Of a DNA stretch of 64,000 nucleotides, positions 24,135-64,000 are shown one piece after another (the stretch's first letter is position 1; the number at the start of each line of letters is the position of its first letter). The notes below the pieces were generated by a model that was not told the origin of the DNA, did not search any database, and saw only the letters and a list, made by a program, of their open reading frames with translations. The stretch is taken from positions 21,080 through 85,079 of the IMG/VR virus record IMGVR_UViG_3300031456_000001; one strand, written 5' to 3'. The DNA comes from a virus. The position numbers were made by a program, and so were the translations under genes.

Positions 24135-24138
24135 AAGC

Positions 24139-39395: not shown

Positions 39396-40931
39396 TCATG
39401 AGACGTCCTCCTGGAGAACGACGACCGGGCCGGCGCGCAGCTCCGGCGACAGGAACGGCCACGCCTCCGGCAGGCTCACCAGCCGGACCGGCCACACGCC
39501 GGTGCCGGGCGTCCACAGCGTGTCCGGGGCGCTGCCCTCGTTGAGCATGAACCGCCGGAAGTAGCCGATCGAGCCGATGGAGGCGCCGGAGGTGTAGTGC
39601 ACGTCCATGTCGGCGTACGCGGCCCCGACCGGCGCACTCGCGGTCGCGACGAGCTGCGTCCACGCGCCCGACGAGCTGGCCACCGGCGTGCCGGACGTCA
39701 CCGACCCGGTGAGCACCCCGGCGGCGTCCCGCCAGTACAGCCGGGGCGTGTAGGTGACGATCGCGTCGGTGCCGCCGCCGCGGACGTAGCAGGAGAAGCA
39801 CAGAGCCCGGCCGCTGACCACCGGGACGCCGGAGCCGAACGTGCTGCTCGGCCAGTCGACGGTGAGCGCGGAGGCGGCGATCGGGTCGGTGTTGTTGAAC
39901 GTCCAGGTGAGGCTGCGCGGCCCGGCGTCGCTGAACGTGCTGCTCGACCCGAGCCCCATGGCGGTGGGGGTGGCGCTGAAGTTGTCGACCAGGATGTTGA
40001 CGGTGCCGTTGCTGTTGCTCGTCTCCCGGCGGGCCCCGACGCCGGCCAGGTTCCCGGTGGTCAGCGACGCGTCGGTGCCGGTGCTCTGCCAGGTGAGGGG
40101 CGCCGTTCCCGTGGTGACGTTGTAGGCGTAGGCGCGCAGGGTCGTACCGGACAGGTCGAAGACGACCTGCCACGTGTCACCGGCGGCGTGCGCGGCGAGG
40201 GTGAAGTTCGCCCCCCCGGTGGTCAGCGCAAGGCTGCTGCCGGCCACCCGCTTGGTGATGCTGAGTGTGGTGCTGCCGCTGGCGGAGAAGTTCAGGGCGG
40301 CTTCGTAGTAGTTGCTGCTGTCGGTCCAGCGGCCGGGGACGCGCAGGATGATCGACGCGCCGGTCGCCACCACGGGCAGCGTGAACTGGGTGACGATCGT
40401 CTGGTTGGGGCATCCGGTGTCGACGGTGGCGTAATACAGGTTGTTGATGGTGACGGTGCTGATCTGGCCTGCGGTGCCGGTGGTGCTGTAGTGCGCGGCT
40501 GTCGACGTGATGGCCCAGGCGTGCCCGGATGTGGAGGTGCCGAAGCCGTTGGAGACGATGCCGCGGTTGAACGTGTCGGCCGGCGGCGTCTCGGTGACAG
40601 CAAACCCGGCAGCGTCGTTGGTGACGCTGGTTGCGCCGGACACGTTGGCGGGCAGCATGTTGCGCTGGCCGGGGTTGAGGAACGCGAACGGCCCGGGGCC
40701 TTCGTGGCCTTCGGCGAACGCCTGCATGATCGCGAAGTCCTCGCGGGTCAGCTGCTCGTAGTTGATCGTGTAGGTGCGGGCGCCGCCGACCATCTGGTCG
40801 ATGGCGTAGCCGCCGACGCCGAGTTCGAAGACGGAGATGCGCCGCTGCCGGGTGCCTTCGACGGTGCCTTTCGGGGACCGGATGGCGACGAGGCTGCCGG
40901 GGCGGCCCAGGTACATGCGGTTGTCGGTCAT
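39396..40931 (-). CDS. Distal tail-like protein with carbohydrate-binding inserts
   Basis: Coupled to the tape measure stop; CBM-like segment WTQLVATASAP.GAAYA. Confidence 0.72.
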   Translation of the reverse strand: MTDNRMYLGRPGSLVAIRSPKGTVEGTRQRRISVFELGVGGYAIDQMVGGARTYTINYEQLTREDFAIMQAFAEGHEGPGPFAFLNPGQRNMLPANVSGATSVTNDAAGFAVTETPPADTFNRGIVSNGFGTSTSGHAWAITSTAAHYSTTGTAGQISTVTINNLYYATVDTGCPNQTIVTQFTLPVVATGASIILRVPGRWTDSSNYYEAALNFSASGSTTLSITKRVAGSSLALTTGGANFTLAAHAAGDTWQVVFDLSGTTLRAYAYNVTTGTAPLTWQSTGTDASLTTGNLAGVGARRETSNSNGTVNILVDNFSATPTAMGLGSSSTFSDAGPRSLTWTFNNTDPIAASALTVDWPSSTFGSGVPVVSGRALCFSCYVRGGGTDAIVTYTPRLYWRDAAGVLTGSVTSGTPVASSSGAWTQLVATASAPVGAAYADMDVHYTSGASIGSIGYFRRFMLNEGSAPDTLWTPGTGVWPVRLVSLPEAWPFLSPELRAGPVVVLQEDVS

Positions 40932-43621
40932 CGCGTCGTCGTCCTCCCGGTGTTGACCCAGCCGTCGCGGGTGCGGCTGCCGACGGCGTTGGCGCTGGCC
41001 ACGGCGTCGGGGTTTTTGGCGATGTAGAGGGGGACGGCCTGGCGGATGCCTTCGCCGAGGTCGGCGACGAGGGTGGTGCCGCCGACGCTGACGTTGGGTG
41101 CGGCGACGTTGACGGTGGGGCTGAACCCGCCGGTGATCATGTTGGCGGTGGCGCCCAGGTACCGCTCGAAGCTCGGCTGGGTGTCCTGCATGCCCTTGAC
41201 GACGCCGGGCAGGATCCAGCGGCCCACCTCCATGCGCATCACCTTGGAGGGGCTGGAGATGCCGAGCGCACCGAGGAAGCCGTCTTTGATCTTCTGGGCG
41301 GCGCGTCGGGCCATGTCGACCGCCCACGACAGGGTGTCGGCAATGCCGTTGGCGAGGCCGTGCAGGACGTCCCGACCGGCGCCGTACAGCCACGAGCCGG
41401 CGCCGCTGAGCGCATTCTTCACCGCACCGGGGATACCGCGGATCCAGCCCATGACGGCGTTGAAGCCGTCGCTTGTGGCCCGCTTCGCCCAGTCCCACGC
41501 GGCGGAGATCTGCCCGCCGATGGCGGAACCGATCGACGACAGGGCGCCCCATGCCTGGCCGGGCAGCGCGCGCAGGTTGGCGACGCTGCGGGCGATGCTT
41601 TCCCTGGCGTAGTTGACGGCCCAGTCCCAGGCGCTGGAGATTGAGGTCATGATCGCCGAGCCGACCTGCGACATGAACGCCCACACCTGGCCGGGGAACG
41701 CCTGCAGGTTGGCGACGCTGCGGGCAATGCTCTCCTGGATGTAGCTGACCACCCAGTTCCAGCCGTCCCGGGCCCAGCCGGGGACGTCGGTGACGAAGAA
41801 TTTGTAGAGGAGGCCCCCGGCGTAGCCGACCATGTAGAAGAAGCTGTCGTAGATCCGCTGGGCCGCGGTGGAGATCATGCCGGGGATGCCCATGATGAAC
41901 GAGCCGATCCGGCCCGGCAGCGCACCCAGCCAGGCCAGGACGGCCCCGCCGCCGCTGACGATCGACGACCAGAGGCTGCTGAACCAGCCGCCGACTGCGG
42001 AGCCGACGTCGGAGAAGAAGCCGGCGATCGCTGACCACGCGGAGGCGACGGCGCCGGACACCGACCCCCACAGGTCGGCCGCCCACCGGCCGACGGCCCG
42101 GCCCATGTCGGCGATGTCGTGGCCCAGCTCCTTGAAGAAGGGGCCGATGCCGCGGACGAACGCGAACACGGCGTTGAGCGCCTTGTAGGCGCCGACGGTG
42201 GCGGCGATGAGGGCGACGAAGGCGTTGCCGGCCCAGTGCACCATCACGCCCAGGTTGTGCAGGGTTTCCTGACCCTCCTTGGACTTCAGGTACAGGTTGA
42301 CCTTGGCGATGGCGTCGGCCATGCCGTTGAGGGTGTCGGTGCCTTCGTCGCCGAACGAGCCGAGCAGGGTGACCGCGAACTCGCCGAGGCCGCGCAGGAC
42401 GGCCCACAGTTTCTTGCCGGTGTCCCAGGCGCGTTCCAGCCAGCCGTTGAGCTTGCCGTCGGATGAGATCTGGGTGAGCCAGCCGGCAAGGCTGGCGATG
42501 CCGTCACTCATGGCCCCGAAGAGTCGTTCAACCCACGGCAGGCTGGCCTGGACGAGATGGCCGATGCCGTCGAACAGCTGAATGAGCGTGGGGCCGAGCC
42601 GGTCGAGGATGCGCGCGGTTGCCGCGAACAGGTCGTTGATGCCCTGCACGGCCCGCGGTGTCGACAGCAGGCCCGCGAGTCCCGCCACGATGCGCCCGAG
42701 GGCGCCCGCCACGGTGGTCAGCCCCTTGCCAAGGGTGGGGATGAGCGCGGTGCCGAGCTTCGACAGCTGCCCGACGAGCGGCCCGAAAAAGGCGTCCTGC
42801 ACGGACGTCTTCAGGCCCTTGAACAGGGGTTTCAGGCCGACGATCTCCTTGGCGACCTTGCGCGCGTTGGGCGCCAGGCCCTTCAGGGCCTCGTTGAACT
42901 TGTCGACGTCGCCGGACAGGCCGGCGCCGACGGCCTCGCCGAAGCCTTTCAGGGCAATGACGAGGGGGGCGACCGCGGCGAGCAGAACTCCGATGGCACC
43001 GGGAATGAGGAGTAGCGCCGCGGAGAGCTGCAACAGTGCCCCGGCGAGGCCGAGGGCCAGGGGGATGAGCAGCGAGAAAGCGGCGATCGGCAGCACGCCG
43101 CCGATACCCCCGGCGACACTGCCGATCTGGGAGAACACGCTGGAAATGCTCTTGAACGCCTGCCCGGCCTGCTGCGCGCCGGTGCTGATCGCGTCGGCGA
43201 ACCCCGAAGCGAACGTGCTGAAGAATTTCGATGCGCTGGACATCAGGCCGGAGAACAGCCGGCCGGCGCCGCCACCGGAGCCGCCGGGGATGAGCGCACT
43301 CAGCAGGCCCTTGCCGCGCCCACGGCCGACGCTGCGGAACAGGTCCAGGAACCGACTGCTGATGCTGCGGCTGCCGGCGCGGACCTCCCGGTCGCCGTCC
43401 TCCATGAGCTGCTTGAACGGGTTGAGGGCCCGGAACTTGTCCATGAGGCCGGTGGAGAACTTGCGGCCGGACTCCTCGCCGGACTTGGCGAACGCCTTCT
43501 CCTCGGCGGCCAGCTCGCCGTCGACCTCTTTGAAGAAGCTCTTGACGTCTTTGAAGGCGCCGTCGGTGTCGGCCTCGATGTCGAGGTATCCCTGCGCGAT
43601 CTCGAAGCCCTTGCCGGCCAC
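40928..43621 (-). CDS. Tape measure protein
   Basis: 897 aa; Ala/Gly-rich with periodic W/F; LGISSPSKV; follows the chaperones. Confidence 0.93.
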   Translation of the reverse strand: MAGKGFEIAQGYLDIEADTDGAFKDVKSFFKEVDGELAAEEKAFAKSGEESGRKFSTGLMDKFRALNPFKQLMEDGDREVRAGSRSISSRFLDLFRSVGRGRGKGLLSALIPGGSGGGAGRLFSGLMSSASKFFSTFASGFADAISTGAQQAGQAFKSISSVFSQIGSVAGGIGGVLPIAAFSLLIPLALGLAGALLQLSAALLLIPGAIGVLLAAVAPLVIALKGFGEAVGAGLSGDVDKFNEALKGLAPNARKVAKEIVGLKPLFKGLKTSVQDAFFGPLVGQLSKLGTALIPTLGKGLTTVAGALGRIVAGLAGLLSTPRAVQGINDLFAATARILDRLGPTLIQLFDGIGHLVQASLPWVERLFGAMSDGIASLAGWLTQISSDGKLNGWLERAWDTGKKLWAVLRGLGEFAVTLLGSFGDEGTDTLNGMADAIAKVNLYLKSKEGQETLHNLGVMVHWAGNAFVALIAATVGAYKALNAVFAFVRGIGPFFKELGHDIADMGRAVGRWAADLWGSVSGAVASAWSAIAGFFSDVGSAVGGWFSSLWSSIVSGGGAVLAWLGALPGRIGSFIMGIPGMISTAAQRIYDSFFYMVGYAGGLLYKFFVTDVPGWARDGWNWVVSYIQESIARSVANLQAFPGQVWAFMSQVGSAIMTSISSAWDWAVNYARESIARSVANLRALPGQAWGALSSIGSAIGGQISAAWDWAKRATSDGFNAVMGWIRGIPGAVKNALSGAGSWLYGAGRDVLHGLANGIADTLSWAVDMARRAAQKIKDGFLGALGISSPSKVMRMEVGRWILPGVVKGMQDTQPSFERYLGATANMITGGFSPTVNVAAPNVSVGGTTLVADLGEGIRQAVPLYIAKNPDAVASANAVGSRTRDGWVNTGRTTTR

Positions 43622-43668
43622 CGGCGCCCCTCCCTTCGTTCACGTCGTGCTGCTCGCCTGCCCCGTGG

Positions 43669-51509: not shown

Positions 51510-52580
51510 TTAGTCGGTGATGCGCTCCAGGACGGACGCGGCCTTCTCGTGCGTGAGCTTGAACGCGCGCCGGGTGCGGAACTTCATCGCGTAGTCGTCG
51601 GTGTCGTCCTGCGCGCGGGCGTCGTCGGTCAGGGTTTCCGGGCCGGACCGGTCGCCACGCGCGAGGTGCCGCTTGTTGGCGAAATACAGCAGGTCGTTGC
51701 CGGCCGGGCTGCCCGAGTTGGCCGCCGACGTCTTGCAGCCACGCGACCAGTAGATCGGCGTCTCGAAGAGGCTGTCCGGGGTGGCGTTGCCCGGCATCTT
51801 CGAGCCGCGCTGGAAGATCGGGCGGCCCTGGCCATCGACGCAGAGCCGCAGCGCGCTGCGCCAGCCGGGCGCCGCGATGACGATCATGTCGGCCTGGTTC
51901 CAGTACTTGCCGGTCTCGACGAGCTGGAACAGGTAGGAGAGCTTCTCGTACAGCGACGTCCCGAGCGGGGTCGTCGGCAGCGAGATGAGGTCGTCGTCCC
52001 ACGTGGTGTAGTTGGCGTCCGCGACGTACGAGGTGGCGGAGTTGGTCGTCCGCAGCGCCTTGTAGGCCGAGGTGAACGGCGCGATCGCGGTGCCGTCCTC
52101 GGTCGCGGTAACGCCGAGGCACGCGTTGTCGAACACGTCGGCGTACGAGATGGCCCAGTCGAGGGCCTTCGTACCGAGCACGTCGAGGCGGGTGTTGGCG
52201 TCGGCCAGGTCGTCCTCATCGACGGTCACGCGGGCGATGAACCGCCGGGCGGTAAGGATGACGTCGTCGTTGGTCGAGGTGTCCGACACGTACGTGGTGC
52301 CGGCCTGGACGGTGATGCCCGCCGACCGCGGGATCGACTTCGTCTTCGAGTTCATGATCACCCGTCGCGCCTGCGACTCGATCACGGACTCGGTGAGCAC
52401 CCGCTGAATGACGTTCGAGTCGTACTCGATCGGGATCCAGGTGGTGATGTTCATGTTGGCGCCACCGGCGGCGGCGTAGACCGGCTGACCACCGCGGGTG
52501 AAGCCGATGACGGTGCCGGAGACGGCCTCGTCGCGGTCGGTGGTGACGTCCCACTGCACGCGGGAGCTGGTGCGCTGCAT
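51510..52580 (-). CDS. Major capsid protein (HK97 fold)
   Basis: WIPIEY..NVI, IPR, LR..VDGQGRPIF, LFETPI; follows the scaffold. Confidence 0.9.
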   Translation of the reverse strand: MQRTSSRVQWDVTTDRDEAVSGTVIGFTRGGQPVYAAAGGANMNITTWIPIEYDSNVIQRVLTESVIESQARRVIMNSKTKSIPRSAGITVQAGTTYVSDTSTNDDVILTARRFIARVTVDEDDLADANTRLDVLGTKALDWAISYADVFDNACLGVTATEDGTAIAPFTSAYKALRTTNSATSYVADANYTTWDDDLISLPTTPLGTSLYEKLSYLFQLVETGKYWNQADMIVIAAPGWRSALRLCVDGQGRPIFQRGSKMPGNATPDSLFETPIYWSRGCKTSAANSGSPAGNDLLYFANKRHLARGDRSGPETLTDDARAQDDTDDYAMKFRTRRAFKLTHEKAASVLERITD

Positions 52581-52689
52581 GTCTTGTCCTCTCGCTCGCG
52601 CACATCGGGTGTCTTCGATGCTCGTCGCGAGCGAGGGAGGTAGCCAGGGCGGCCCGTCACGGGTAGCGCGGTGGTTTTCCTTACCTGAT

Positions 52690-53218: not shown

Positions 53219-54244
53219 CTACACCCGACCGCGTTCGAACATCTGTGCGGCGATCTTCTCTTCCCAGGTCTTCGGTGCGGCCTGCTGCCGGCCGCGGCCG
53301 CCGCCATCGACGTCGCGGGCGCCCCGGCTGGCCCGGGTTGCGGTCCGGGCCGTGGCGGCCGTCCGGCGTCGGGCCGGCTTGCGCTCCTCGAACAGGTTCG
53401 GGAAGTCCTCCTGGAGCTGCGTGATGGCCTCTTCGATGCCGAGCAGCTCGAAGCTGTCGCCGTCGAGGTCCAGGTCCAGCTCGTCGGGGTCGATGGTGCG
53501 CATGATCCGGCGCAGCTGCCGGTCGTCGCCGGTGAACCCGGCGTCGCGCAGGGCGAGGCGGGCGGCGTGCTCGGCGAGGATCGGCATCAGCTCTTCGCGG
53601 GCTTTCTGCTCGCCGCGGCGTTCCGCGGTCAGCACCGCGCGGGCGTGTTCCTTGTCCCGCTGCCGGCGGCTGCGTTCGTCGTCGCCGCGGCGCGGGTCGT
53701 CCTCGTACTGGTCGACGTCGGCGGTGTCGTCGCGCGGGTCGACGACGTCGTCGCCGTACGGGTGTCCGGTTTCGGGGTCGATGCCGCGTTCGGTGAGCCA
53801 GGTGCCGAAGTCGTCGATGCCGAGCTTGTCGGCGTACTTGCCGATGCGGCGGCGTTTGCCGGCTTCGGCGTTGGCCCGCTTCAGCGAGCCGGTGACCCGG
53901 TCCCAGGTGGCCCGGTCCGGCGGGGTCCAGTCGGCGTCTTCCCCGTCCTCGTCCTCGCCGTCGTCCTGCTGCTGGCGCCCCCGGCGGGCCTTCCGCGCGG
54001 CCGGCTCGTCCTCGTCGTCGTCATCGTCGTCCGCGTCGTCGTCGGCGTCCCGACCCGAATCGTCGTCGTCGTCGAACTCGGGATCGTCGCCTTCGTCGTC
54101 ACCGACCGCGAATTCGATTCTGCTGCCGCCGGAGCGGCCGCCCTGGGCGCTGTAGACGGGCACGCCGAGCACCGTGTAGGCGATCGGGGTGTAGGGCGAG
54201 GCAGAAGCCGCCCGTAGCCCAGGCTTGACTGCAGTGGTGGTCAT
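53219..54244 (-). CDS. Capsid scaffolding protein
   Basis: Acidic tract, helical core, ANAEA..RR, FPNLFE, DGG; upstream of the capsid gene. Confidence 0.8.
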   Translation of the reverse strand: MTTTAVKPGLRAASASPYTPIAYTVLGVPVYSAQGGRSGGSRIEFAVGDDEGDDPEFDDDDDSGRDADDDADDDDDDEDEPAARKARRGRQQQDDGEDEDGEDADWTPPDRATWDRVTGSLKRANAEAGKRRRIGKYADKLGIDDFGTWLTERGIDPETGHPYGDDVVDPRDDTADVDQYEDDPRRGDDERSRRQRDKEHARAVLTAERRGEQKAREELMPILAEHAARLALRDAGFTGDDRQLRRIMRTIDPDELDLDLDGDSFELLGIEEAITQLQEDFPNLFEERKPARRRTAATARTATRASRGARDVDGGGRGRQQAAPKTWEEKIAAQMFERGRV

Positions 54245-54334
54245 CTCGACCGGCCTCCCTGTTCGCGGTGCCCGTCGCGGGCGTGACGTCGCGTCGGTGA
54301 TCAGGGTAGCCGAACAGGCGTACGAACAACAGGA

Positions 54335-54358
54335 AGCCCCGCCCGGGTGGGCGGGGCT
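54335..54358 (-). terminator. Putative terminator
   Basis: AGCCCCGCCC-gggt-GGGCGGGGCT, followed by TCCTGTTGTT on (-). Confidence 0.6.
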
Positions 54359-54370
54359 GGTCCTGGATGG

Positions 54371-54721
54371 TCAGGTGTTGTCGCGCTCGTCGGCGAATTC
54401 GATGCCGTCGTTGGTGTCGGGGTTGTCCCACCGGTCCGCGGTGTCCTGCGGGGCGGGCTGCTCGTCGGCGTCGTCGCCGTACAGCGGTTCGGCGGTGCAG
54501 GTCCGGACGTGCTCGGCGGCCTGCTCGGCCTGTTCCGGCGTGAACTCCTCGCCGCACCGGTCGCACACCGCGTCTTCGCTTTCGGCGTCTTCCGGGTCCT
54601 CGTCGTAGTCATAGTCATCAAAGTCGTCGGGGTCCGGACCCTCGTCGTACTGGGGGTAGTCCCAGCCGGTCGGCTCGCCGGCCTCGTTCCGGTAGATCTG
54701 TGCGCCAACTCCGGGGAACAT
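54371..54721 (-). CDS. Acidic hypothetical protein with Zn-finger-like motif
   Basis: CDRC...H...C; AAGGAGGCCCCAGATG leader. Confidence 0.7.
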   Translation of the reverse strand: MFPGVGAQIYRNEAGEPTGWDYPQYDEGPDPDDFDDYDYDEDPEDAESEDAVCDRCGEEFTPEQAEQAAEHVRTCTAEPLYGDDADEQPAPQDTADRWDNPDTNDGIEFADERDNT

Positions 54722-54748
54722 CTGGGGCCTCCTTCGTGGTGGGATTGG

Positions 54749-55126
54749 TCAGTCGCCGATCGAGTACCAGTCGTTGCGATCGCAGCCGGGCGCCGAACAG
54801 GTGATGCGGTCGCCGTACGCCTCCTGCGTGGTGACCACCGTGTCGTAGCCCTTGCACTTGGGGCAGCGCGACACCGCGTACAGGTCAGGCTGACCACCAT
54901 GGTTTGGTGTGCCGTCGGCATGCCGCGCAACGGTGAACGCATCCTCGCCGAGTTCCCACGGGCCGGGCCGGTACGCCGGGTCGGTGATGCGGTGGTCCCA
55001 GGCGGCCTTCACGGTGACGATCGGCTTGCGGCACGTGCTGCACAGGTGACCGGCATCCACGTCGGCGAGAACGGCCAGAACGACCTCGCCGTCGCGGTGC
55101 CAGATAGTGGCAGTGTCGATGGGCAT
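54749..55126 (-). CDS. Hypothetical Cys-rich protein
   Basis: CSTC, CPKC; first gene after a promoter cassette. Confidence 0.7.
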   Translation of the reverse strand: MPIDTATIWHRDGEVVLAVLADVDAGHLCSTCRKPIVTVKAAWDHRITDPAYRPGPWELGEDAFTVARHADGTPNHGGQPDLYAVSRCPKCKGYDTVVTTQEAYGDRITCSAPGCDRNDWYSIGD

Positions 55127-55186
55127 CTGGGGCCTCCTCGTTAGTGGAGACCCCAGGCTAGCAAACTGTCACGCGACGTGTCAACT
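55122..55186 (-). promoter_or_regulatory. Promoter, leader and RBS cassette (direct repeat of 33900-33964)
   Basis: TTGACA-N18-TAGCCT; upstream stop TGA lies inside TTGACA. Confidence 0.88.
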
Positions 55187-55597
55187 TCCGGGGTTGACGA
55201 GGTCGGGGTGGGCCATGTTGGCCTTGCGACTTCCGGTGTCGCCCTCGATGGCCTTGGAGTCGAGGTAGCGCCGCCGCAGCGCCTCCAAGAGGCGTTTGAT
55301 GGTCTGCGGCTTCGACGCGCCGGCCTCGACGGTGACCTTGTTGTCCCGGGCGACGGCCCGCAGCGCGGGCGCGCTGTAGCCCTTGAGGATGTTCTCGGCG
55401 GCGAAGTCGGACGGGGCGTTGCGCAGGCTGTAGGCCAGGTCCGTCTCGCCTTCGATGCGGGGGCGGAGCCGGGCGCGGTCGGCGTCGGTGGCGCCGACGG
55501 GAATGGGCGTCGGGGTGGGCGCCCGCAGGGCGGCGGGCGCAGCCGCGCGGACGGCCGGAGCCGCCGTCTCGGTGCGCCCGCCCTGCGGGCTTACGCT
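55181..55597 (-). CDS. Segment C of the frameshifted polyprotein
   Basis: Reached by a -1 shift at G GGA AAA (55603-55597); HeH-like YSAPALRAVARDNKV...KPQTIKRLL. Confidence 0.65.
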   Translation of the reverse strand, partial: SVSPQGGRTETAAPAVRAAAPAALRAPTPTPIPVGATDADRARLRPRIEGETDLAYSLRNAPSDFAAENILKGYSAPALRAVARDNKVTVEAGASKPQTIKRLLEALRRRYLDSKAIEGDTGSRKANMAHPDLVNPGS

Positions 55598-58500
55598 TTT
55601 CCCAGGCTGGCCAGCCTGGCGACCGCGGCGACCGCGGCGGTGGCGCGGGCCGCGCGCTGCGGCCGCCCCTCCAACCTCCTGAGGCCGTCGAAGGTCCGTA
55701 GGCGCTGCTCGGCGGTGAACTTGGCCCAATCCTCGGCAGTCACCCGCTCGGCGCCGTTGAGTAGCCCGAACGGGCTGGAGTCGGTGCCGCGGGACGCGGC
55801 GATGAGGTCCACCCCGGCGCGGCTGACGCCGAGCCTGTCGGCCGTGTGGCGTTCGGCGGTGTTGTGGATGCCCTTGCGGATCTCGTCGAGGGGGGTGCGG
55901 GTCGGTGCGAGCATGCCGAGGTGCGCGGCGACCTTGCGCAGTTCGGGTGCATTCATGTCGGCGGCGAGCCGGTCGGCCTCGTCGGGGGTGACGGTGCGCA
56001 GCTTCGCCACGAACTCTTCCGGGGTGGCCTTCGGTGCCGCGCTGTGCACCTGCGGTCCGGCGGCTTGCTCGGCGCCGACCTTGCGCAGGATCTTCTCGTT
56101 AGGTCGGGTGGCGTGCATGACGCCCCGGCCGCCGGTCGGCGTGGTGTAGGCGACCTTGACGTTTTTGACGCCGACCTCCGTGACGATGCCCCGCCGATAG
56201 CGGCTGAACGTGTCGACCATGACCACGTCGCCGGCTTTGACCGGCTGGTCGGGTGCGGCGGCGAAGCCGAGCTGCCGGGCGTCGTCGTCGCCCCCGGCGA
56301 CGGCCATCAGCTTCAGGGCCTCCTGGTAGGTGACGTCCCGGCCGAGCTTGGAGGTTTCGTGCCGGGCGGCGATCTCGATCTTGGCGGTGGCGCCGGTGCG
56401 GCCGCCGCCTTTCGGGGTGGGTGCGGTGTCGGCGACGTGCCGGAGACCTTCGCCGGTGATGTAGCTGCCGTTGACCCGCTCGCCGTCCTGGGTGGCCTCG
56501 GCCAGGTAGTTGCCCCGGATCAGCTCGCCGGTGATGTGGCCGGACTCGTAGGGGTTTTTGGTGCCCAGCTCCTTGGCGATGGCGTTGGCGTCCCTGGACC
56601 ATTTGATGGCGGCGTTGACCTCGGTCTTGTCGGGGTCATCGACGGTGTATCCGGGCTGGGGACCGAGGCGTTCGTGGATGACGGCGGCGGTGCGGAGCAG
56701 GCTGTCACGGCCGTGGGACAGCTCGGAGCGGGGCCGGGTGTCGCCGCCGGGCTTCTTCGTCACGTTCGCCTCCGTGGCGGAGGTCGGTGCGACTCGGTCG
56801 GCCTTGATGTGGGTGGTGACCGTGCTGGCACCCTTCCCGGCGGTCCCGTCGGCGCGCAGCTTGGTGCCGCGCACCATGACGTTGCCGTTGCGGTCCGGTT
56901 CGCCCAGCACTTCGACGTCGGCCAGCTGGTAGGGCTGCTTGTACGTCAGGTCGGCCCCGGCCGGGACCGTGATGGTCGAGCCGTTCTGGATGCGGTTCAC
57001 GTTCGCCTCCGTGGTGGGTGCGTTGCTCACCCCACCAGTATGCGAACTGTCACGCCGTGTGTCAAGTTGGCCGCGGCGTTCCGTCTCCAGCTTCGCCAGG
57101 CTCGCCTCGTGGCGCGCCCGGATGCCCGGCGTCAGGTCCGGCTTCGCGAGCGCGTCGCGGTGCTGCCGGATCTCCCGGTCGAGGGCCTCGCGGTCCAGTT
57201 CGGCGACCGTCTTGTTGCGGCCCTCGTAGCGATGGAACATGCGTCCGCTGATGCGGCGCGCATCGAGGCTGCCGCCGGTGCTGGCCGCCGTCTCGCCGTT
57301 GGTGAGGACGTCGGCGGCGTGGGCGATGGTGTCGGCCCAGCCCTCCAGGCGCGTCTCGCCGCTACCGTTCTCCGAGTGCACGGCATAGACCTGCTCGCCG
57401 TCGCGTACGGTCGAGGTGACCCACCCGGCGGTCTGGCCGTTGCGGTCGGTGACCTTGAACTCTCCGAACGGGTTGTCGGGGGTGTGCCGGATGCGGCCCA
57501 CCTTGAGGTCGGACCGCTGCCCGGACGGCCCGGCCATGATCTTGCGGTACAGGTCGGCGTGGTCCATCCGGCCGTCGGCGATGGCCCGGATCTTGGCGCC
57601 ATTGTCCTTCGGGTCCTTCGACTCCTGCAGGTCACTGACACGCTTCTCGGTGGCTGCGGTGCGGGCCTTGGCCAGGTTGGCGGTGCGCTTCTCCGCGGTG
57701 GCCGCACTGACCACCGGTGGGGCAGCGCCACTCCCCCGCTGCCTGCTGTTGATCCGGGCTCGCATGGCGTCCCAGCCGACGCCGTTGATCGTGAAGTCGG
57801 GGTTGCGGGTCTCGCCCCGGTCGACAGCGGCGAGCGCATCCGCGTACCGCCCGTCCTTCATTGCCAGGCGCGCCTGCTCGGCCACGTCGGCAGAGGCAGC
57901 CTTGCGGGCGGCCTCCTTCGCCCTACCGCCGTCTTTCGGCCCGTCGAGTACCCGGGGGTTGGCGTCGATGTGGGCGCGCACCGCGTCTTGGACGGTACTG
58001 GTGCCGTACTTCTTCTCCAGGGCCTGCAGGTGCCCTTCCGTGACGTACCGGGCGGTGTCGTCACGGCTGAGGTTGAGTGCGCCGCCGTGGTTGGCTGCGG
58101 CGTAGTCCTCGGTGGCCGCCTGGATGCGCGCCCGGTCGAGGGGCGCGATGGCGTCGCCCTTGCCCGGGGCGGCGGCGAGCGCGCCGCGCTTCGCGGCCGG
58201 GTTGATCCGGGTGCGGACGGGAGCGGCGGGCGCCTTCGCAGCCTCCGGCTTGACGACGTCGTGCGGCTGGATCCGGGTCTCGATCGTCCGGCCGTTCTGA
58301 TCGACCCGGCTCACGTGCAGCGTCTCACCCGGTCCGGCGTCGCGGGTCACCGTGTACTCGCGCGGCTTCGCGCCGGGCGGCAGGGCGAAGGTGGACAGCA
58401 CCTTGTCGCCCTTCTTGTGGCCGACCTCCCCGGCGAACACCTCCTCGTGCAGGGCGTGCATGTCGGCGGCGATCTTGGCCAGACCGGACGGCCCGGATGC

Positions 58501-59403
58501 CGGCGCGGGCACCTTGGCGGGCTTGGCCGACTCGCCGCGCAGCCGGGCGGCGGCCCGCTCCGCGAGCGCGTTGCCGTCGCGACGCCCCAAGATGGTCAGC
58601 TCGGTCGCCTGCTCTTCGCTGATGCCGCCGCCGGAGCGCACCTCGAAGTCGTAGTTCTTTGCGCCGGGGTCTCCGTCACCGGCCGCTGCGCGGACCGCGT
58701 TCCAGACGGCGACCTTCTCGGCCACCTTCGCATCGGCCTTGTCGGCACCCTCCGTGGTGGCCATGCTCGGCAGACTGTCGTGCAGCTTCTGCACTTCGCT
58801 GCGGGTGCGCGGGGTAAGGTCGGTGCGGGCCAGCTCGCCGCGCAGTACCTCGCCACCACGGCGATTGTTCTCAGCGGCAGCCCGCACCCGGGCGGCATTT
58901 TTCGCATCGAAGATGATCGACTCGGCAAGGGCGCGCTGGCCGTCCGGCAGTTTCTTAACAGCGGTGTCGCCGGGGATGCCGTTGGCCTTCTTCAACGCCT
59001 TGACGTGGGCTTTCGCAGCCTCTTCGACATCGATCCGACCCAGCGCCTGCGCCGCCGCGCTGGCCCGCTTCCGGTGGGCGAGGAAGTCGTCTTTCAGGGC
59101 CTGGTTCTCGTCCCGGAACACCTGGACCTTGCGGGCGGCGGCATCGATACGCCACGTCTCCCAGGCGGGAGTGTTCTCGAACTCTTTGAGCGCCTGCCGC
59201 CATTCCTTCTTGCGTTCGACGTCGAGCAGGTTGGTACCGCCGTAGCCGTTGATCTCGTAGTCGACACCCTGGGCGAACTGGGTTTTACGGTCGCCGCTCC
59301 AGCGGTTCGGGTCGCTCATGTCGACGCCGATAACGGCGCGGCCTTCGCTGGCCTGCGTAGTGCGCTTCGTCTCGACCGGTATCCGGCCGCGCATGGGGGG
59401 CAT
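55591..59403 (-). CDS. Large mosaic protein, segment B (putative internal virion / polyvalent protein)
   Basis: 1270-aa ORF between portal and scaffold; the frame is open upstream to the slippery site at 59469. Confidence 0.8.
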   Translation of the reverse strand: MPPMRGRIPVETKRTTQASEGRAVIGVDMSDPNRWSGDRKTQFAQGVDYEINGYGGTNLLDVERKKEWRQALKEFENTPAWETWRIDAAARKVQVFRDENQALKDDFLAHRKRASAAAQALGRIDVEEAAKAHVKALKKANGIPGDTAVKKLPDGQRALAESIIFDAKNAARVRAAAENNRRGGEVLRGELARTDLTPRTRSEVQKLHDSLPSMATTEGADKADAKVAEKVAVWNAVRAAAGDGDPGAKNYDFEVRSGGGISEEQATELTILGRRDGNALAERAAARLRGESAKPAKVPAPASGPSGLAKIAADMHALHEEVFAGEVGHKKGDKVLSTFALPPGAKPREYTVTRDAGPGETLHVSRVDQNGRTIETRIQPHDVVKPEAAKAPAAPVRTRINPAAKRGALAAAPGKGDAIAPLDRARIQAATEDYAAANHGGALNLSRDDTARYVTEGHLQALEKKYGTSTVQDAVRAHIDANPRVLDGPKDGGRAKEAARKAASADVAEQARLAMKDGRYADALAAVDRGETRNPDFTINGVGWDAMRARINSRQRGSGAAPPVVSAATAEKRTANLAKARTAATEKRVSDLQESKDPKDNGAKIRAIADGRMDHADLYRKIMAGPSGQRSDLKVGRIRHTPDNPFGEFKVTDRNGQTAGWVTSTVRDGEQVYAVHSENGSGETRLEGWADTIAHAADVLTNGETAASTGGSLDARRISGRMFHRYEGRNKTVAELDREALDREIRQHRDALAKPDLTPGIRARHEASLAKLETERRGQLDTRRDSSHTGGVSNAPTTEANVNRIQNGSTITVPAGADLTYKQPYQLADVEVLGEPDRNGNVMVRGTKLRADGTAGKGASTVTTHIKADRVAPTSATEANVTKKPGGDTRPRSELSHGRDSLLRTAAVIHERLGPQPGYTVDDPDKTEVNAAIKWSRDANAIAKELGTKNPYESGHITGELIRGNYLAEATQDGERVNGSYITGEGLRHVADTAPTPKGGGRTGATAKIEIAARHETSKLGRDVTYQEALKLMAVAGGDDDARQLGFAAAPDQPVKAGDVVMVDTFSRYRRGIVTEVGVKNVKVAYTTPTGGRGVMHATRPNEKILRKVGAEQAAGPQVHSAAPKATPEEFVAKLRTVTPDEADRLAADMNAPELRKVAAHLGMLAPTRTPLDEIRKGIHNTAERHTADRLGVSRAGVDLIAASRGTDSSPFGLLNGAERVTAEDWAKFTAEQRLRTFDGLRRLEGRPQRAARATAAVAAVARLASLGKA
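57037..57065 (-). promoter_or_regulatory. Intragenic promoter cassette
   Basis: TTGACA-CACGGCGTGACAGTTCG-CATACT, 6 nt, then in-frame GTG at 57030. Confidence 0.7.
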
Positions 59404-59409
59404 GCCACC

Positions 59410-59438
59410 AGCCTGACCGCTGTCACGCGACGTGTCAA
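59410..59438 (-). promoter_or_regulatory. Promoter cassette before the ATG at 59403
   Basis: TTGACA-CGTCGCGTGACAGCGGT-CAGGCT, 6 nt, then ATG. Confidence 0.7.
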
Positions 59439-59456
59439 CATGCCCGCCCTGCGGGC

Positions 59457-60782
59457 CTACGCTTTTGGGCCTGCCCCCTTCGCGAACTCGAACCGGTCCA
59501 GATTGCCGCTACGACCCTCGGCGCTGAGCTGCTCATGGCCGTGGATCTTCGTCAAGCCCGCCATCTTGCGGTCGTTGGCGATCAGCGCATCGATCAGCTC
59601 GGCCTTCGACTTGCCCTTCGTGGAGACGCTGCGGCGGCCGTATTTCTGCAGCCACTCCAGATCCTGGGCCTCGTAGTAGGACCGCATTCCGGCCTCGTCG
59701 AAGTTGGCGATCTCCGCCGCATATCCGATCTCCGGTGCCGGCGCCGTCTTCGCGACGGCCCGCTCCGCGGCGGCCGCGGCCACCGGGGACACCTGCGGCC
59801 TCGCCGGGCCGGTTTCGTCGCGCTGGCCGACACCCTTCGGGTTCAGCCGCATCTTGCGGGCCTCGTCTTTGGCCTTCAGTGCGTCGGCGATCTGCGCGTT
59901 GGACTTGCCCCGCCCGGAGATGCCGGCGATCCGGGCCAGCGCGAGCAGCGTGGTGCGGTCCATGTCGGGGTAAGCGGTAGCGCCGTTTTTGCTGTCGGGT
60001 ACGGCCTTGATGGCATCGACGACGGCACGGATGTCGACGCCGGGCTTGTCGAGGATGTCGGCGCCGAGCTGGCCGCCCTCGCCGGGCCTGGTGGCCAAGA
60101 GCGCGTCGCGGGGGTCGGTGTAGCCGGCCGAGGCGGCGGACCTGCGCGCGGCGACGGCTTTCGCGGCACCGCCGTAGCGGTTGGCGAAGTCGGCGTCGGA
60201 GACCTTCGGCACGTCCATCGACAGGGGCGCTTCGACGATGCCGCCGCGCTGTTCGGCGGCCATCTGGTCGGCCTTCTTCAACGCCCGGTCGGACAGGCTG
60301 GTGCGGGTCTTGCGGTCGAGCGGCACTGCCACGCCGCCCAGGCCACGCTGTTCGGCGATCCGGTCGGAGACCTGCTGCAGGGCGGGCTTCGGCTCCGCCT
60401 TCCGCGCAGCAACCGCCTTCGACGCCTTGCCGTAACGGCTCTCGATGTCCTTCTCGGACGTCTGCACGTCGAGGTTGACCGCTTTGGCGTTGATCGCCTC
60501 CTGCGCGTCCTGGGCCACCGTCCTGCGGGCACCCGGGGCAGCCTTCTTCGGCGCCGCCGCTTTCGTCGGCGGCGCGGCCTTCTTCGGCGCGCTGAACGAG
60601 CTGAACGGCTGCATACGCTCCTGGCGTTCACCGCCGTGCGTCATCGAGAAGCCCTTGACCCCGGCCTCCTGGGCGGCCTTGAACGCCCGCGCAGCCCACG
60701 CGGGGCTGCCCTTCTTCGCGAACCGACCGTCACTGGCCCGCGGGTGCTGCCACTCGCGGAAGATCCTCTTCGTCGCAGCCAT
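59457..60782 (-). CDS. HPR-motif protein, segment A (441 aa)
   Basis: GGAGAGG RBS; FREWQHPRASDGRF; PKKAAP repeats; ends at C CCA AAA GCG TAG. Confidence 0.8.
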   Translation of the reverse strand: MAATKRIFREWQHPRASDGRFAKKGSPAWAARAFKAAQEAGVKGFSMTHGGERQERMQPFSSFSAPKKAAPPTKAAAPKKAAPGARRTVAQDAQEAINAKAVNLDVQTSEKDIESRYGKASKAVAARKAEPKPALQQVSDRIAEQRGLGGVAVPLDRKTRTSLSDRALKKADQMAAEQRGGIVEAPLSMDVPKVSDADFANRYGGAAKAVAARRSAASAGYTDPRDALLATRPGEGGQLGADILDKPGVDIRAVVDAIKAVPDSKNGATAYPDMDRTTLLALARIAGISGRGKSNAQIADALKAKDEARKMRLNPKGVGQRDETGPARPQVSPVAAAAAERAVAKTAPAPEIGYAAEIANFDEAGMRSYYEAQDLEWLQKYGRRSVSTKGKSKAELIDALIANDRKMAGLTKIHGHEQLSAEGRSGNLDRFEFAKGAGPKA

Positions 60783-60783
60783 G

Positions 60784-61719
60784 TCAGCCTCTCCCCGCCC
60801 GGCGCGCCAGCTGCGCGCTCGCCTGATCCATCCAGCCCTCGACCTGCGTGCCACGCAGCGTACGACGCTTCGGCGCCCGCGCATTCTCCTGCCGGCCACG
60901 GGCCTGCACCCGCTTCATCGCCGCCACAAACACATTCGCCCGCTGCAGGCCCTCATCGTCATGGAGGTCGGCGCGGGCGCCGTACCCGAAGCGCCCCTCC
61001 TCCCAATCCCGCCGGATCATGACGGTCCGGCCCGCGGACGTCGCCGGCCGGACCCGTCGGTACACGCGCTCCGCGTCGTCCGGGCTCGTCCGATACTCGC
61101 CGCGGCGGAAGCCCAGAACGTGCTCTTTCTCCCGCTGCGACCGGCTCTTCGGCTTGCGCAGCTCGCTGATGCCGTGCCCCATGTCGTTCAGGTAGTTCGG
61201 CTCGTGCCGGCTGCCTGGCCGGGCCGGGTTGATCCACAGGCCGCCCGCGTCCGGGTGGGTCGACGGGCTCCAGTAGATGTGTTCACCGTTGATCCGGCCG
61301 GCGCCCTGCGGGTGCTCGCCGACCCGACGGTAACCGAGCCGTGCGGCCAGTGGTCGGTCGTCGGACACGTTCCGCCCGAGATATTCACCGTACTCGTTGT
61401 ATTTGCCGCCCTGGCCGTCGTGGTACATGACGCCGCTGTCGTGCTGCAGGCCGAGGTGGTTCCGGTATGTGTCGAACGCCCCCTCAAGGGCGTTCAGCTC
61501 ATCCTGCTCGGCGTCGGTGCGTTCCGTCCGCCCAGGCAGGCCGGGCACCTTCCACAACTCCAGAGCGCGGCGCGCCGCCTCGGCGTGCCCGGCCGGCGGC
61601 GGCTCACTGCGGCGTCGGGCGATGTCGACGGACACCCGTCCGACCCACGCGTCGACCCCGGCCCGGGTGAACTGGCCTTCACCGTCGCGGGGGTGCAGCT
61701 TCTCGTTCCAGTCACCCAC
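60784..61719 (-). CDS. HPR-motif protein (311 aa)
   Basis: WNEKLHPRDGEGQF at the N-terminus; directly after the portal gene. Confidence 0.75.
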   Translation of the reverse strand: MGDWNEKLHPRDGEGQFTRAGVDAWVGRVSVDIARRRSEPPPAGHAEAARRALELWKVPGLPGRTERTDAEQDELNALEGAFDTYRNHLGLQHDSGVMYHDGQGGKYNEYGEYLGRNVSDDRPLAARLGYRRVGEHPQGAGRINGEHIYWSPSTHPDAGGLWINPARPGSRHEPNYLNDMGHGISELRKPKSRSQREKEHVLGFRRGEYRTSPDDAERVYRRVRPATSAGRTVMIRRDWEEGRFGYGARADLHDDEGLQRANVFVAAMKRVQARGRQENARAPKRRTLRGTQVEGWMDQASAQLARRAGRG

Positions 61720-61720
61720 G

Positions 61721-63904
61721 TCAGCCGCCCTGCGCCGGCCCGGCGGCCTTCACGGACGCTTTGGCAGGTGCGGCCTTCTTCGCCACGGGCCGCTGACCAC
61801 GGGCAGGCGCGCTACCCTGGGCCTTGCGTGCCCGGGTGGTGCCGGTCGCCATTCCGCCGCCACGTCGGGCGCCCGACGTGGCACCACCGGACGGGAGACG
61901 ACCACCCGGGGCGCCAGGCCCGCCAGCACCGAGCATGCCGCCGGGCGGCAGCACCGGCGGCGGGTCGCGGAACTGCGGCGCCGGCAACGGGTCGACCTGG
62001 TCGGCCGGGTCGGTGTCGGTGGTGCCGTCGGCGAGGTTGCCGATGATCCGGGCCACGAACGCCTGCGTCACGTTGTCCGGCACGACACCCGCGGTGACGC
62101 CCGCGGCGAGCGCCTGCACGGCGGTGCCCAGCTGCACCAGCAGGGCGACGCGCTGCTCCAGGGACAGGCCCTCCTGGCGCTTCAGCCAGGCGTCGACCTG
62201 GTCGTCGGGGTAGCCCATCTCGTTGAGCAGCACCTCCGACGGGACGCCCATGTCGCCCTTCGCCTTGAGCACCTGCACGCCGGTGAGGTCGTTGACCGCG
62301 GCGACCGGCATCCACCGGACATCGACGGCGATACCCTCGATGGCGAGCATGCGCAACGCAAGCTCGTAGGCGTCCTGCCATTCCGGGTCGTAGCGGGCCT
62401 GCCGGTCTGCGACCTTGGCGTTGTAGGGGGCGTCGATGGCTCGGACGGCCTCCCCGGACGGGATGTCCCCGGAGGACTTCGTGAATTTGTACTGGGGCAC
62501 GTCGGTCAGTTCGGCCATGGACTTGATGAACCGGTCGAGCGGTGTCATGAACGTCGCCGGGTCGGCCGCCGAGTACTGGCCGGTCAGTTTGCCGTACAGC
62601 TTCCACACGCTGTTCGGGTCGGCGCGCAGCCCGGACGTGCCGCCCAGGTTCTCGGGGTCGTCGTCGTCGTCCTCGGGGTGATCGGGGTCGACGAGGTTCA
62701 TCAGCGGGTCGTCGACCTTCGGGTCGGCGATGATGTACCGCTGCGGGAAGCCCTGGTATTCGATCACCCCGGCGTACGACCAGATCAACTTGTTGATCAT
62801 GGTCTGTGGGCCGTAGGCCGAGGCGTGCTCGGGCAGGCCGCACGGCACGCCGTTGCGGAAGTGGAACCAGGTCAGCCCGAACGGGCTGGGCATGTCGTCC
62901 TTGTCGAGCGGCTCATCGACGTCGCCGAACTCGTCGGCCGCGACGTGGTCGATGTCCTCGGCGTCGGTGTCCTGCATCTGGTGGACGCGGACCCACGAGT
63001 CGGGCCGGGAGGCCAGGGCGCCCGGATTGGTGACCCAGCGTTCGACCCGGCCGGCGCCCTGGGTGATCTGCCCGTCGCCGTCGATGGTCAGCGGCCCCGG
63101 GTAGTACAGGTTGGCCCGGGTGACGACCTTGCGCTCCTGCTCGGGGGCGCCGTCCTCGGCGAACTCGCTCGGCGTCAGCCACGACTTGATCACGTAGGCG
63201 GGCCGGAGCGGGTCTTCGGGGTCGTACACGAAGGCGACGTCGTGGGCGTTGTTGACCCGGAAGTCGACGCTGACCACGGTGCCAGCGGCGTCGGTGACCG
63301 GCCACAGGAAGAGGAATGCCTCGCCGTGCCGGGAGGCGTTGTGGTGCAACGTCTTCTCCCACACGTCGAGCCGGTTGTTGCGGCGCAACATCTTGATCGT
63401 CTTCTCGGCGCGCTTGACCGTCTTCGGGTCGGCGCTGGCCTCGCCGTCCTCCTCTTCGTCCTCGGACGTAGTGGGGGCGACCTTGACCGCGGCGATCTGC
63501 AGCCGGTCGGCGACAGCATCGACGGGGATCTTGGCGTAGTTGAAGTCGTGGATGTCGTCTTCGTTGACGCCCTGCTTGGCGAGCACCTTGCGGACCGCGG
63601 ACGAGGCGTAGACCATGCCCAGGTCGCCGTCGTACATGGCATCGGCCTCGGTGGCTTTGGCCCGCTGCTCTTCGAGCACCTTCAGGCCATCGACAAGGTG
63701 CCGGCGGGACTGCTGGTCGCGCTTGGCGCTGTCGGGGTTGGCAAGGCGCTTGATGAAGGGGTCGTTGGCGAACTCGCTGGCGGCGTCGGCGCGCGGCGCG
63801 GTGGCCCCGTTGGCGGGGGTGCCGGCGGCCCGGGTGCCGGTGCCGCGGGGGCTGGTCGGGGCGGTGTTGCTGCGGGGGCGGCGGGGGTTCGCGGTCACGG
63901 TCAC
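61721..63904 (-). CDS. Portal protein (SPP1 gp6-like) with basic terminal extensions
   Basis: YDGD, NYAKIPVDAVADRL, EYQGFPQRYI, SGEA, VRW, LNEMGY. Confidence 0.88.
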   Translation of the reverse strand: MTVTANPRRPRSNTAPTSPRGTGTRAAGTPANGATAPRADAASEFANDPFIKRLANPDSAKRDQQSRRHLVDGLKVLEEQRAKATEADAMYDGDLGMVYASSAVRKVLAKQGVNEDDIHDFNYAKIPVDAVADRLQIAAVKVAPTTSEDEEEDGEASADPKTVKRAEKTIKMLRRNNRLDVWEKTLHHNASRHGEAFLFLWPVTDAAGTVVSVDFRVNNAHDVAFVYDPEDPLRPAYVIKSWLTPSEFAEDGAPEQERKVVTRANLYYPGPLTIDGDGQITQGAGRVERWVTNPGALASRPDSWVRVHQMQDTDAEDIDHVAADEFGDVDEPLDKDDMPSPFGLTWFHFRNGVPCGLPEHASAYGPQTMINKLIWSYAGVIEYQGFPQRYIIADPKVDDPLMNLVDPDHPEDDDDDPENLGGTSGLRADPNSVWKLYGKLTGQYSAADPATFMTPLDRFIKSMAELTDVPQYKFTKSSGDIPSGEAVRAIDAPYNAKVADRQARYDPEWQDAYELALRMLAIEGIAVDVRWMPVAAVNDLTGVQVLKAKGDMGVPSEVLLNEMGYPDDQVDAWLKRQEGLSLEQRVALLVQLGTAVQALAAGVTAGVVPDNVTQAFVARIIGNLADGTTDTDPADQVDPLPAPQFRDPPPVLPPGGMLGAGGPGAPGGRLPSGGATSGARRGGGMATGTTRARKAQGSAPARGQRPVAKKAAPAKASVKAAGPAQGG

Positions 63905-64000
63905 GCTGAAACTCCCTCGCCGAAACCCTTGACGTATGGAGCCGCAAAGTGCTTACGGCGCTGCGGCCAGAGTACCGGTTGGCGATCACGGCGTACAGCG
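63901..64000 (-). CDS. 3' end of an upstream gene (partial)
   Basis: Open frame ...PYVKGFGEGVSA* whose TGA overlaps the portal GTG. Confidence 0.45.
   Translation of the reverse strand, partial: AVRRDRQPVLWPQRRKHFAAPYVKGFGEGVSA

Follow-up and report, generated by a model that had tools for sequence, protein, structure and literature searches.

The IMG/VR virus record IMGVR_UViG_3300031456_000001 has, between its portal and capsid genes on the minus strand, a chain of three open reading frames (ORFs), A, B and C, in which A appears to be joined to B, and B to C, by two sites of -1 ribosomal frameshifting. We have studied these sites in a window of 64,000 nucleotides (nt), comprising bases 21080-85079 of the 85,079-base-pair (bp) record, which has direct terminal repeats; positions below are those of the window. 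Each site contains a short hairpin directly after a stop codon. The original prediction held that the 5′ arm of this hairpin can also pair with a different, more distant 3′ arm at each site, and saw in this the mark of selection for a stimulatory or switchable RNA structure. Are these longer hairpins real, and what might they do? The analysis suggests that the two sites differ. Of the two long hairpins, only that of site 2 looks like a selected RNA structure, and the element common to the sites is the short hairpin.

One cassette at both sites

Sites 1 and 2 are copies of a single 28-nt element, consisting of a slippery heptamer, a GCG codon, a 0-frame stop codon and the hairpin GCCCGC-AGG-GCGGGC (coordinates in Table 1). 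They have an identical 25-mer in common, which occurs exactly twice in the whole genome. The short hairpin alone has 6 bp with a predicted stability of −10.4 kcal mol-1, and follows the heptamer after a spacer of 6 nt, within the 5-9 nt at which stable RNA is expected in a -1 frameshift signal. A spacer of 6 nt sets the first pair of the stem at the mRNA entrance of the ribosome.

Relatives were recovered from viral and metagenome contigs by DNA pattern scans and one protein-profile scan. The type-A hairpin pattern matched 41 loci in viral contigs, one of them relevant (G001). The pattern GGGAAAAGCGTARGCC matched 30 loci, mostly chance or unrelated, from which only L057/L066 and L062 were kept, and 10 of the 16 loci given by a looser hairpin scan were ordinary low-GC terminators with T-runs. 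A DNA pattern scan of genome contigs gave no match. In all, 12 distinct slippery sites were collected: W1 and W2 (sites 1 and 2 of the window), G001, G002, site a of G005/G006 (G006a), G007, L029, L030, L033, L037, L110 (the same as L111) and L062. The contigs L031, L032, L034 and L035 are the same as G006, G002, G007 and G005, respectively.

The sites as probable -1 frameshift signals

At all 12 sites X_XXA_AAA stands in the correct 0 frame, followed by one codon, a stop codon and a GC hairpin directly after the stop. The heptamer takes its first base from the third position of the codon before it, which is otherwise variable, and this base matches X in 11/11 independent upstream contexts, being G in all nine GGA contexts and C in both CCA contexts; given genomic third-position frequencies of 0.351 for G and 0.566 for C, such agreement has p of about 2.6e-5. 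A long ORF continues downstream in the -1 frame at every one of the 12 sites. In the first ten sites this ORF has 84-1292 amino acids (aa), with a third-position G+C content (GC3) of 0.77-0.94; in L110 it has 731 codons and in L062 at least 138. G006 has the 15-nt hairpin sequence a second time (G006b), in frame and without a heptamer.

The relatives also include fused versions of the protein. The closest, L003, has a portal protein 63% identical to that of the window, and has one ORF of about 1,845 aa that comprises the A module at its N-terminus, modules of the B type and the C domain; the A-B-C product predicted for the window, about 1,867 aa, agrees with it in size. At the spot homologous to site 2, L003 keeps G_GGA_AAA GCG and has neither the stop nor the hairpin. 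Modules A and B are fused in ten giant homologues of 981-2109 aa, four of which end ...GKA; ORF A of the window ends ...GPKA before its stop codon. The N-terminus of ORF A, RIFREWQHPRASDGRFAKKGS, is the same in seven of the ten and in the single ORF of L003.

ORF C is a -1 frame that would require a shift. The first ATG, GTG or TTG of its frame lies 302 nt past the 0-frame stop, and its conserved domain is 58%, 42% and 47% identical to in-frame stretches of the giant ORFs of L008, L007 and L003, respectively (tblastn; alignment A3). Because all 12 sites have a -1 ORF and the closest relative encodes the modules as one ORF, programmed -1 frameshifting is well supported, though unproven, and it is very probable that sites 1 and 2 are signals of this kind. 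We also considered transcriptional slippage on the A4 run, and judged it on general knowledge to be unlikely since the run is short.

The C domain also occurs alone. P0016, a protein of 166 aa on a 69-kb contig, is a stand-alone C domain that ends ...RPKA, as expected of a C_CCA_AAA GCG stop cassette, and for this reason the cassette may also follow the C module elsewhere.

The long hairpin of site 2

A check against the sequence confirmed every string and coordinate of both proposed complementarities on the minus strand. At site 2, GCCCGCAGGGCGGGCGCA (55590-55573) pairs with 55541-55521 through 10 bp, a 3-nt CCG bulge and a further 8 bp, just the 18 bp or so with one bulge that had been described. 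An inverted-repeat search found the same arms as 13 nt at 100% (55521-55533 with 55578-55590) and 10 nt at 100% (55532-55541 with 55573-55582). Long and short hairpins have their first base in common, 6 nt past the heptamer.

Is this more than would be expected of G+C-rich RNA? On folding 96 nt, the long hairpin was the structure of minimum free energy, at −63.5 kcal mol-1 (z -3.17), and 1/200 dinucleotide shuffles was as good. Only one of about 1,065 genomic 120-nt windows had a 5′-arm duplex as strong, and site 2 ranked first among 10,654 sliding 80-nt windows of the minus strand, at about −60 kcal mol-1. The energy gained over the short hairpin is the difference between the unconstrained ensemble and an ensemble constrained to form the short hairpin, both taken over 110 nt from the start of the hairpin. 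The gain at site 2 was −11.6 kcal mol-1, equalled in none of 400 random contexts, and the codon-shuffle null gave 0/150.

Site 2 (W2), G001 and L029 have a common downstream module, and all three have the long hairpin. In G001 and L029, 21-22 of the 23 bases of the 5′ arm are still paired. The apical helices and the linker peptides differ among the three. G001 and L029 agree in the frame in which the terminal GCGGGC of the 3′ arm is read, and the window uses another. Because the hairpin persists while its apical sequences change and its 3′ arm passes into a different frame, its presence in three phages points to selection at the level of the RNA, for which it is the best evidence that we have. 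Aligned with MAFFT, the three long hairpins gave an ungapped and structurally meaningless result (A1), on which no covariation was counted.

A rearranged form of this region exists in a contig of run X2 (contig record 9) that has about 97% identity to the window, where 56760 is joined to 55535 with one letter between. Through this junction the contig has lost site 2, the final ORF B module and most of the long hairpin, and the C domain comes to lie in frame directly after an internal GTG start.

The long pairing of site 1

The pairing proposed at site 1, 59457-59439 with 59404-59385, is imperfect as had been described, with 18-19 bp and three single-base interruptions; the inverted-repeat search found it as 15 nt at 87%. 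A promoter cassette forms its loop and the stem covers the ATG at 59403, again as described. In the -1 frame the cassette is translated as VDTSRDSGQAGG, a peptide that is also embedded in the homologues. The ATG has no Shine-Dalgarno sequence, and looks like the leaderless start of a transcript from this promoter.

The same comparisons set site 1 well apart from site 2. The 96-nt fold had z -1.42, with 17/200 dinucleotide shuffles as good, and 11 of the approximately 1,065 genomic windows had a 5′-arm duplex as strong. The gain over the short hairpin, −6.1 kcal mol-1, was equalled in 8/400 random contexts, and the site ranked 77 of the 10,654 sliding windows. The codon-shuffle null gave 0/150, and the synonymous-codon null 21/150, which is not significant. 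The only site-1-like relative, G002, in which a promoter also follows the hairpin, has no long arm (gain −0.2 kcal mol-1), and part of the 3′ arm in the window encodes RGR, which is conserved as protein in the homologues. A contig of run X2, about 97% identical to the window, matches 59604-59420 and then diverges, so that it does not have the region of the 3′ arm in common with the window. We conclude that the long pairing of site 1 is marginal and only suggestive, and that it is probably incidental or of small effect. The original prediction is supported in part. The fold of site 2 passes every control, and its conservation in G001 and L029 points to selection on the RNA; the fold of site 1 passes some controls, fails against GC-matched shuffles, the comparison by which the prediction was to be refuted, and is not shared by G002.

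The C-rich 3′ arm of site 1 (59396-59406) is in addition 91% complementary over 11 nt to the G-rich stretch 59468-59478, just upstream of the heptamer.

Distal arms across the 12 sites

Is an alternative 3′ arm a general property of these frameshift sites? Calculated in the same way, the predicted gains fell into three groups. The whole 15-mer paired distally in W2 (−11.6 kcal mol-1), G001 (−12.2), L029 (−5.6) and W1 (−6.1). In L033 (−6.8 kcal mol-1), L037 (−8.9) and G006a (−4.2) its 3′ half alone did so, which destroys the short hairpin rather than extending it and leaves a spacer of 13 nt. The short hairpin was dominant in the remaining five of the 12 (G002, G007, L030, L110 and L062, with gains of 0 to −0.2 kcal mol-1). 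Long arms do not, then, mark such sites in general: five sites have none, and at three more the distal pairing costs the hairpin itself.

Among random contexts, 50/400 (12.5%) reached −3 kcal mol-1 or lower. Three of nine independent types of downstream module had a null fraction of 0.0225 or less (at most 9/400), where about 0.2 of nine would be expected, and L033 and L037 retain their distal arm with a change of G-C to G⋅U. Counted by module type, distal pairing is above expectation, yet it is no rule. Because five of the 12 sites lack a distal arm, the shared core is the short hairpin, and the long arms are specific to the downstream module. Nor are the sites of the window bistable at equilibrium. 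For site 2 the predicted equilibrium probability of the short hairpin is 6.5e-9, and for site 1 it is 4.9e-5, a balance so one-sided as to speak against the switchable structure that had been suggested.

The cassette at module junctions

Compared between slippery sites, the 28-nt element has 86-100% identity and the 60-nt flanks only 12-47%. Pairs of relatives share one flank and differ in the other. G006a and G007 share 98% upstream and 30% downstream; G006b and G007 share 100% downstream and 23% upstream. G007 lacks exactly the 807 nt that lie between the two 15-mers of G006. L033 and L037 share 90% of the downstream flank and not the upstream one, and their heptamers are of the GGG and CCC type, respectively.

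The 807-nt segment is an in-frame module of 269 codons, present in G005/G006 and not in G007, and is flanked by the two 15-nt hairpin copies (L027 4709-5530 compared with L028 9702).

A proposed mechanism and its alternatives

With moderate confidence, we propose that the cassette is a frameshift-or-stop signal with the local hairpin as shared stimulator, that an inverted copy at site 2 creates a very stable hairpin from the same start base, and that the long pairing at site 1 is incidental or minor. The portable 28-nt cassette would act through X_XXA_AAA, the 6-nt spacer formed by GCG and the 0-frame stop, and the hairpin GCCCGC-AGG-GCGGGC. Ribosomes that do not slip would stop two codons on, giving A (441 aa) or B (1270 aa); those that slip would make A-B (about 1,730 aa) and A-B-C (about 1,867 aa), the full-length product being the form that the closest relative encodes as one ORF. 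The local 6-bp hairpin would be the stimulator common to both sites. At site 2 the Ala/Pro-rich linker holds an inverted copy of the first 21-23 nt of the cassette, so that the RNA would fold into a hairpin of 70 nt and 29 bp from the same base. Most likely it is this longer fold that stimulates slipping there, and it would set a rate of frameshifting that is specific to the module and probably higher.

Several observations weigh against this proposal. A 6-bp hairpin of −10.4 kcal mol-1 is a weak stimulator. Five of the six pairs of the short stem are invariant over 10 distinct sequences, the variation being one double C-G to G⋅U change and one unpaired cell; covariation is almost absent because the cassette is invariant, and conservation of the short hairpin could stem from transfer of the cassette rather than from structural selection. 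The long hairpin passes the synonymous-codon null only moderately (5/150 at site 2, 10/150 in L029 and 1/150 in G001, in a synonymous-codon and codon-shuffle comparison that omitted G006b and G007). There are only three type-A sequences, and they share descent. The close relative of run X2 retains part of the site-2 3′ arm, even though the last module is missing in full and the 5′ arm with it. ORF C could in principle start from an overlapping TTG at 55729. ORF B has its own promoter and ATG, and the shift at site 1 is therefore not needed for its expression. Finally, what we observe are anatomy, calculated energies, conservation, frames and fused homologues, and from these we infer the frameshifting itself, its efficiency and the fold that the ribosome meets.

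Could the long complementarities have no function as RNA? They might be by-products of recombination of the cassette, and of G/C-rich Ala/Pro/Gly linkers that happen to pair with the G-rich 15-mer, so that the cassette alone matters. For site 1 by itself this is the likelier account, given that it does not differ significantly from the synonymous-codon null (21/150), that G002 lacks the long hairpin and that the C-rich 3′ arm can also pair upstream of the heptamer. The one in eight random contexts that beat the short hairpin by 3 kcal mol-1 or more, the five sites without a distal arm and the partnerless remnant in the X2 variant fit it too. For both sites together we consider it unlikely, since the site-2 hairpin ranks first of 10,654 windows, has a gain equalled in 0/400 random contexts and persists in three phages whose apical parts and linker peptides have diverged and whose 3′ arm is read in two frames. 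Alternatively the hairpins might belong to the ends of genes, as terminators without a U-tract, transcript insulators or RNase III/stability hairpins, A, B and C being separate genes and the long forms stronger versions. The hairpin of every site does begin directly after a stop codon, a promoter lies within 3-12 nt downstream at site 1 and in G002, and the 29-bp duplex of site 2 would be a plausible substrate for RNase III. A gene end would, however, not call for agreement of the first heptamer base in 11/11 contexts, for a downstream ORF in the -1 frame at 12/12 sites, for an ORF C devoid of a start codon over 302 nt or for single-ORF versions in relatives; nor does a T-run follow either hairpin, and neither was flagged as an intrinsic terminator. 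We regard this explanation as quite improbable.

There remains the idea of a regulatory switch, in which distal arms extend the stimulator (as at site 2) or compete with it (as in L033, L037 and G006a), the rate follows the spacing of ribosomes or the form of the transcript, and the site-1 arm hides the ATG at 59403 on read-through transcripts. Three of nine module types with a distal pairing equalled in at most 9/400 random contexts, against about 0.2 expected, and the arm retained in L033 and L037 through a G⋅U change, would agree with it, and passages of PMC3639245 indicate that hairpins refolding during translation can modulate frameshifting. It is very improbable all the same, with the predicted equilibrium wholly on one side at both window sites, the site-1 arm not conserved in relatives and no Shine-Dalgarno sequence at the ATG to hide.

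If the proposed frameshift-or-stop signal is extended to the whole group, a broader picture can be drawn, which we offer as a tentative possibility. Soil actinophages would share a portable, near-invariant frameshift-or-stop cassette that, as RNA, splits a giant mosaic head-region protein into nested products and, as DNA, provides a patch of homology for swapping modules. Each downstream module would bring the distal 3′ arm that sets the rate of its junction, and in-frame cassettes of promoter, 5′ untranslated region (UTR), Shine-Dalgarno (SD) sequence and start codon would add a second layer of nested products.

Genomic setting and embedded promoters

The window has 70% G+C, and represents most of the genome of an uncultured high-GC siphophage, with a siphophage gene layout on the minus strand according to PHROGs profiles. 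The closest cultured portal proteins are those of Streptomyces phages, at only 25-28% identity. A blastn search of the 5.9-kb region against cultured phages and plasmids gave no match, tblastn of ORF B against cultured phages found nothing, and a locus search using ORF B as a single protein gave no relatives. No family was found for A, B or C in Pfam (E up to 5) or PHROGs. Among the 10 giant homologues Pfam gave a single, sub-threshold match to SAP (20.3 bits against a cutoff of 23.9), a profile of the C domain gave one chance-level match to PDB sequences (E 0.12), and searches of a protein atlas gave no usable match. A search of Rfam found nothing within 54000-61500 at E up to 1 and nothing at gathering score in the whole window, and a scan for tRNA found none.

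Table 1. Features of the frame chain and its surroundings, in window coordinates
Feature	Position	Strand	Description
Portal	61724-63952	minus	PHROGs profiles
ORF A	59460..60782	minus	Translation; N-terminal module of the giant protein, 441 aa, ATG 60782
Site 1 heptamer	59463..59469	minus	C_CCA_AAA, 0 frame of ORF A
Site 1 stop	59457..59459	minus	TAG, 0 frame, inside the 6-nt spacer
Site 1 hairpin	59442..59456	minus	GCCCGC-AGG-GCGGGC; invariant 15 nt, 6 bp; doubles as 5′ arm of the long hairpin
Promoter cassette	59405..59438	minus	-35 TTGACA 59438-59433, 17-nt spacer, -10 CAGGCT 59415-59410
Site 1 proposed 3′ arm	59385..59404	minus	Includes ATG 59403, codons MPPMRGR; marginal pairing
ORF B	55594..59403	minus	1270 aa from ATG 59403; probably also entered from ORF A by the -1 shift at site 1
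Promoter cassette in frame within ORF B	56998..57065	minus	TTGACA-17 nt-CATACT, 5′ UTR hairpin, GGAGG 57010-57006, GTG 57000-56998
Site 2 heptamer	55597..55603	minus	G_GGA_AAA, 0 frame of ORF B
Site 2 stop	55591..55593	minus	TAA, 0 frame
Site 2 invariant hairpin	55576..55590	minus	15 nt; doubles as start of the long 5′ arm
Site 2 long hairpin	55521..55590	minus	70 nt, 29 bp, 3-nt bulge on the 3′ side; 3′ arm 55541-55521
ORF C	55181..55603	minus	-1 frame extension, 140 codons, conserved SAP-like C-terminal domain
Major head protein	51513-52688	minus	PHROGs profiles
Tape measure	40931-43639	minus	PHROGs profiles

A promoter-like cassette, TTGACAC-N3-GCGTGACAG...TAGNCT, occurs in 13 copies in the window (7876-59438), where 0.6 would be expected. 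The copies are on both strands, usually upstream of a short 5′ UTR with GGAGG and ATG. The stop codon of ORF C, TGA (55183-55181), is part of the -35 box, TTGACA, of the promoter cassette that follows, and the giant ORF of L003 has a TAG stop directly before that same cassette. Within ORF B the embedded unit of promoter, 5′ UTR hairpin, SD sequence and GTG is translated as LDTRRDSSHTGG...TEANV, and a second in-frame SD sequence with GTG lies at 56773-56761 on the minus strand. Every one of the 10 giant homologues, and L003 as well, has one to several copies of the translated cassette peptides, and this recurrence suggests that nested, N-terminally truncated products are made from the embedded starts.

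Elsewhere in the window, the third most stable 80-nt fold of the minus strand (51496-51417, −56.0 kcal mol-1) follows the major head protein gene closely on its downstream side; it is probably a hairpin at the end of a transcript. A cluster on the plus strand (20953-28416) has PHROGs matches to glycosyltransferases and nucleotide-sugar epimerases; a distant Streptomyces phage, KimJongPhill, also has sugar-modifying genes near its terminase.

Discussion

Programmed -1 frameshifting in tailed phages is textbook knowledge for the tail assembly chaperone; to our knowledge little is known of it elsewhere in phage genomes. The present cassette lies at 12 junctions in uncultured actinophages, in one case twice in the same gene, and exactly at mosaic breakpoints, and would therefore tie recoding during translation to the way in which phage proteins evolve by modules. 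We found no description of it in the open-access text searched. If distal arms tune efficiency, these phages offer a natural series in which heptamer, spacer and stem base are the same and the extension of the stem varies; with it one could test which parts of a stimulator count. There is also a consequence for annotation, which wrongly divides such giant genes into two or three unrelated ORFs.

In the tail chaperones G and GT, a -1 slip makes a short and a long protein in fixed ratio. The window has the signal for this shift too, A_AAA_AAC followed by TGA (43989-43983, minus strand), with a -1 frame KKLTERIGE... that runs up to the tape measure gene; in phage KimJongPhill the tail chaperone frameshift is annotated as a joined coding sequence. 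The cassette resembles the chaperone signal as a presumed -1 slip in a phage structural operon adjoining a 0-frame stop. It differs in being portable, in lying in the head module, and in its gene and heptamer, and the tail site showed no conserved hairpin.

Escherichia coli dnaX and the IS3/IS911 family of insertion sequences (IS) have well-known -1 frameshift signals, with which the cassette has in common a heptamer of the form X_XXZ_ZZN, a short spacer, a stem-loop, a nearby 0-frame stop and, by prediction, two products per mRNA. Here, in contrast, one invariant cassette is placed at many non-homologous junctions, twice in one gene; no upstream enhancer resembling a Shine-Dalgarno sequence is evident; and the modules joined are those of a giant protein of the structural region rather than of a polymerase or transposase. 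The slippery heptamer is defined, with IS-element examples, in passages of PMC4066793.

The protein itself recalls the phage polyvalent and MuF-associated multidomain proteins, as parts of PMC5512222 and PMC5576092 present them, in being very large, mosaic and built of many modules next to portal and head genes. The analogy is one of position and mosaicism, not of membership, as Pfam and PHROGs detected no MuF or effector domain.

Pairings beyond the local stem have precedents in eukaryotic RNA viruses. Passages of PMC3639245, on the upstream attenuator hairpin of SARS-CoV, and of PMC10602861, on umbravirus-like RNAs, describe extra or long-distance pairings that modulate frameshifting. The idea that alternative pairings around the shift site tune its efficiency is common to both; those cases are experimental, while ours are predicted folds with a one-sided equilibrium. 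In shape, the closest parallel to site 2 is the frameshift hairpin of HIV-1 gag-pol, described in parts of PMC2794165 and PMC3561942. Judged by those descriptions, both are long hairpins rather than pseudoknots, have a 3-nt bulge and start a few nt past the heptamer, a likeness of shape only that implies no relatedness. Unlike that of HIV-1, the hairpin of site 2 is GC-rich in both its parts, and its lower 10 bp are the conserved cassette.

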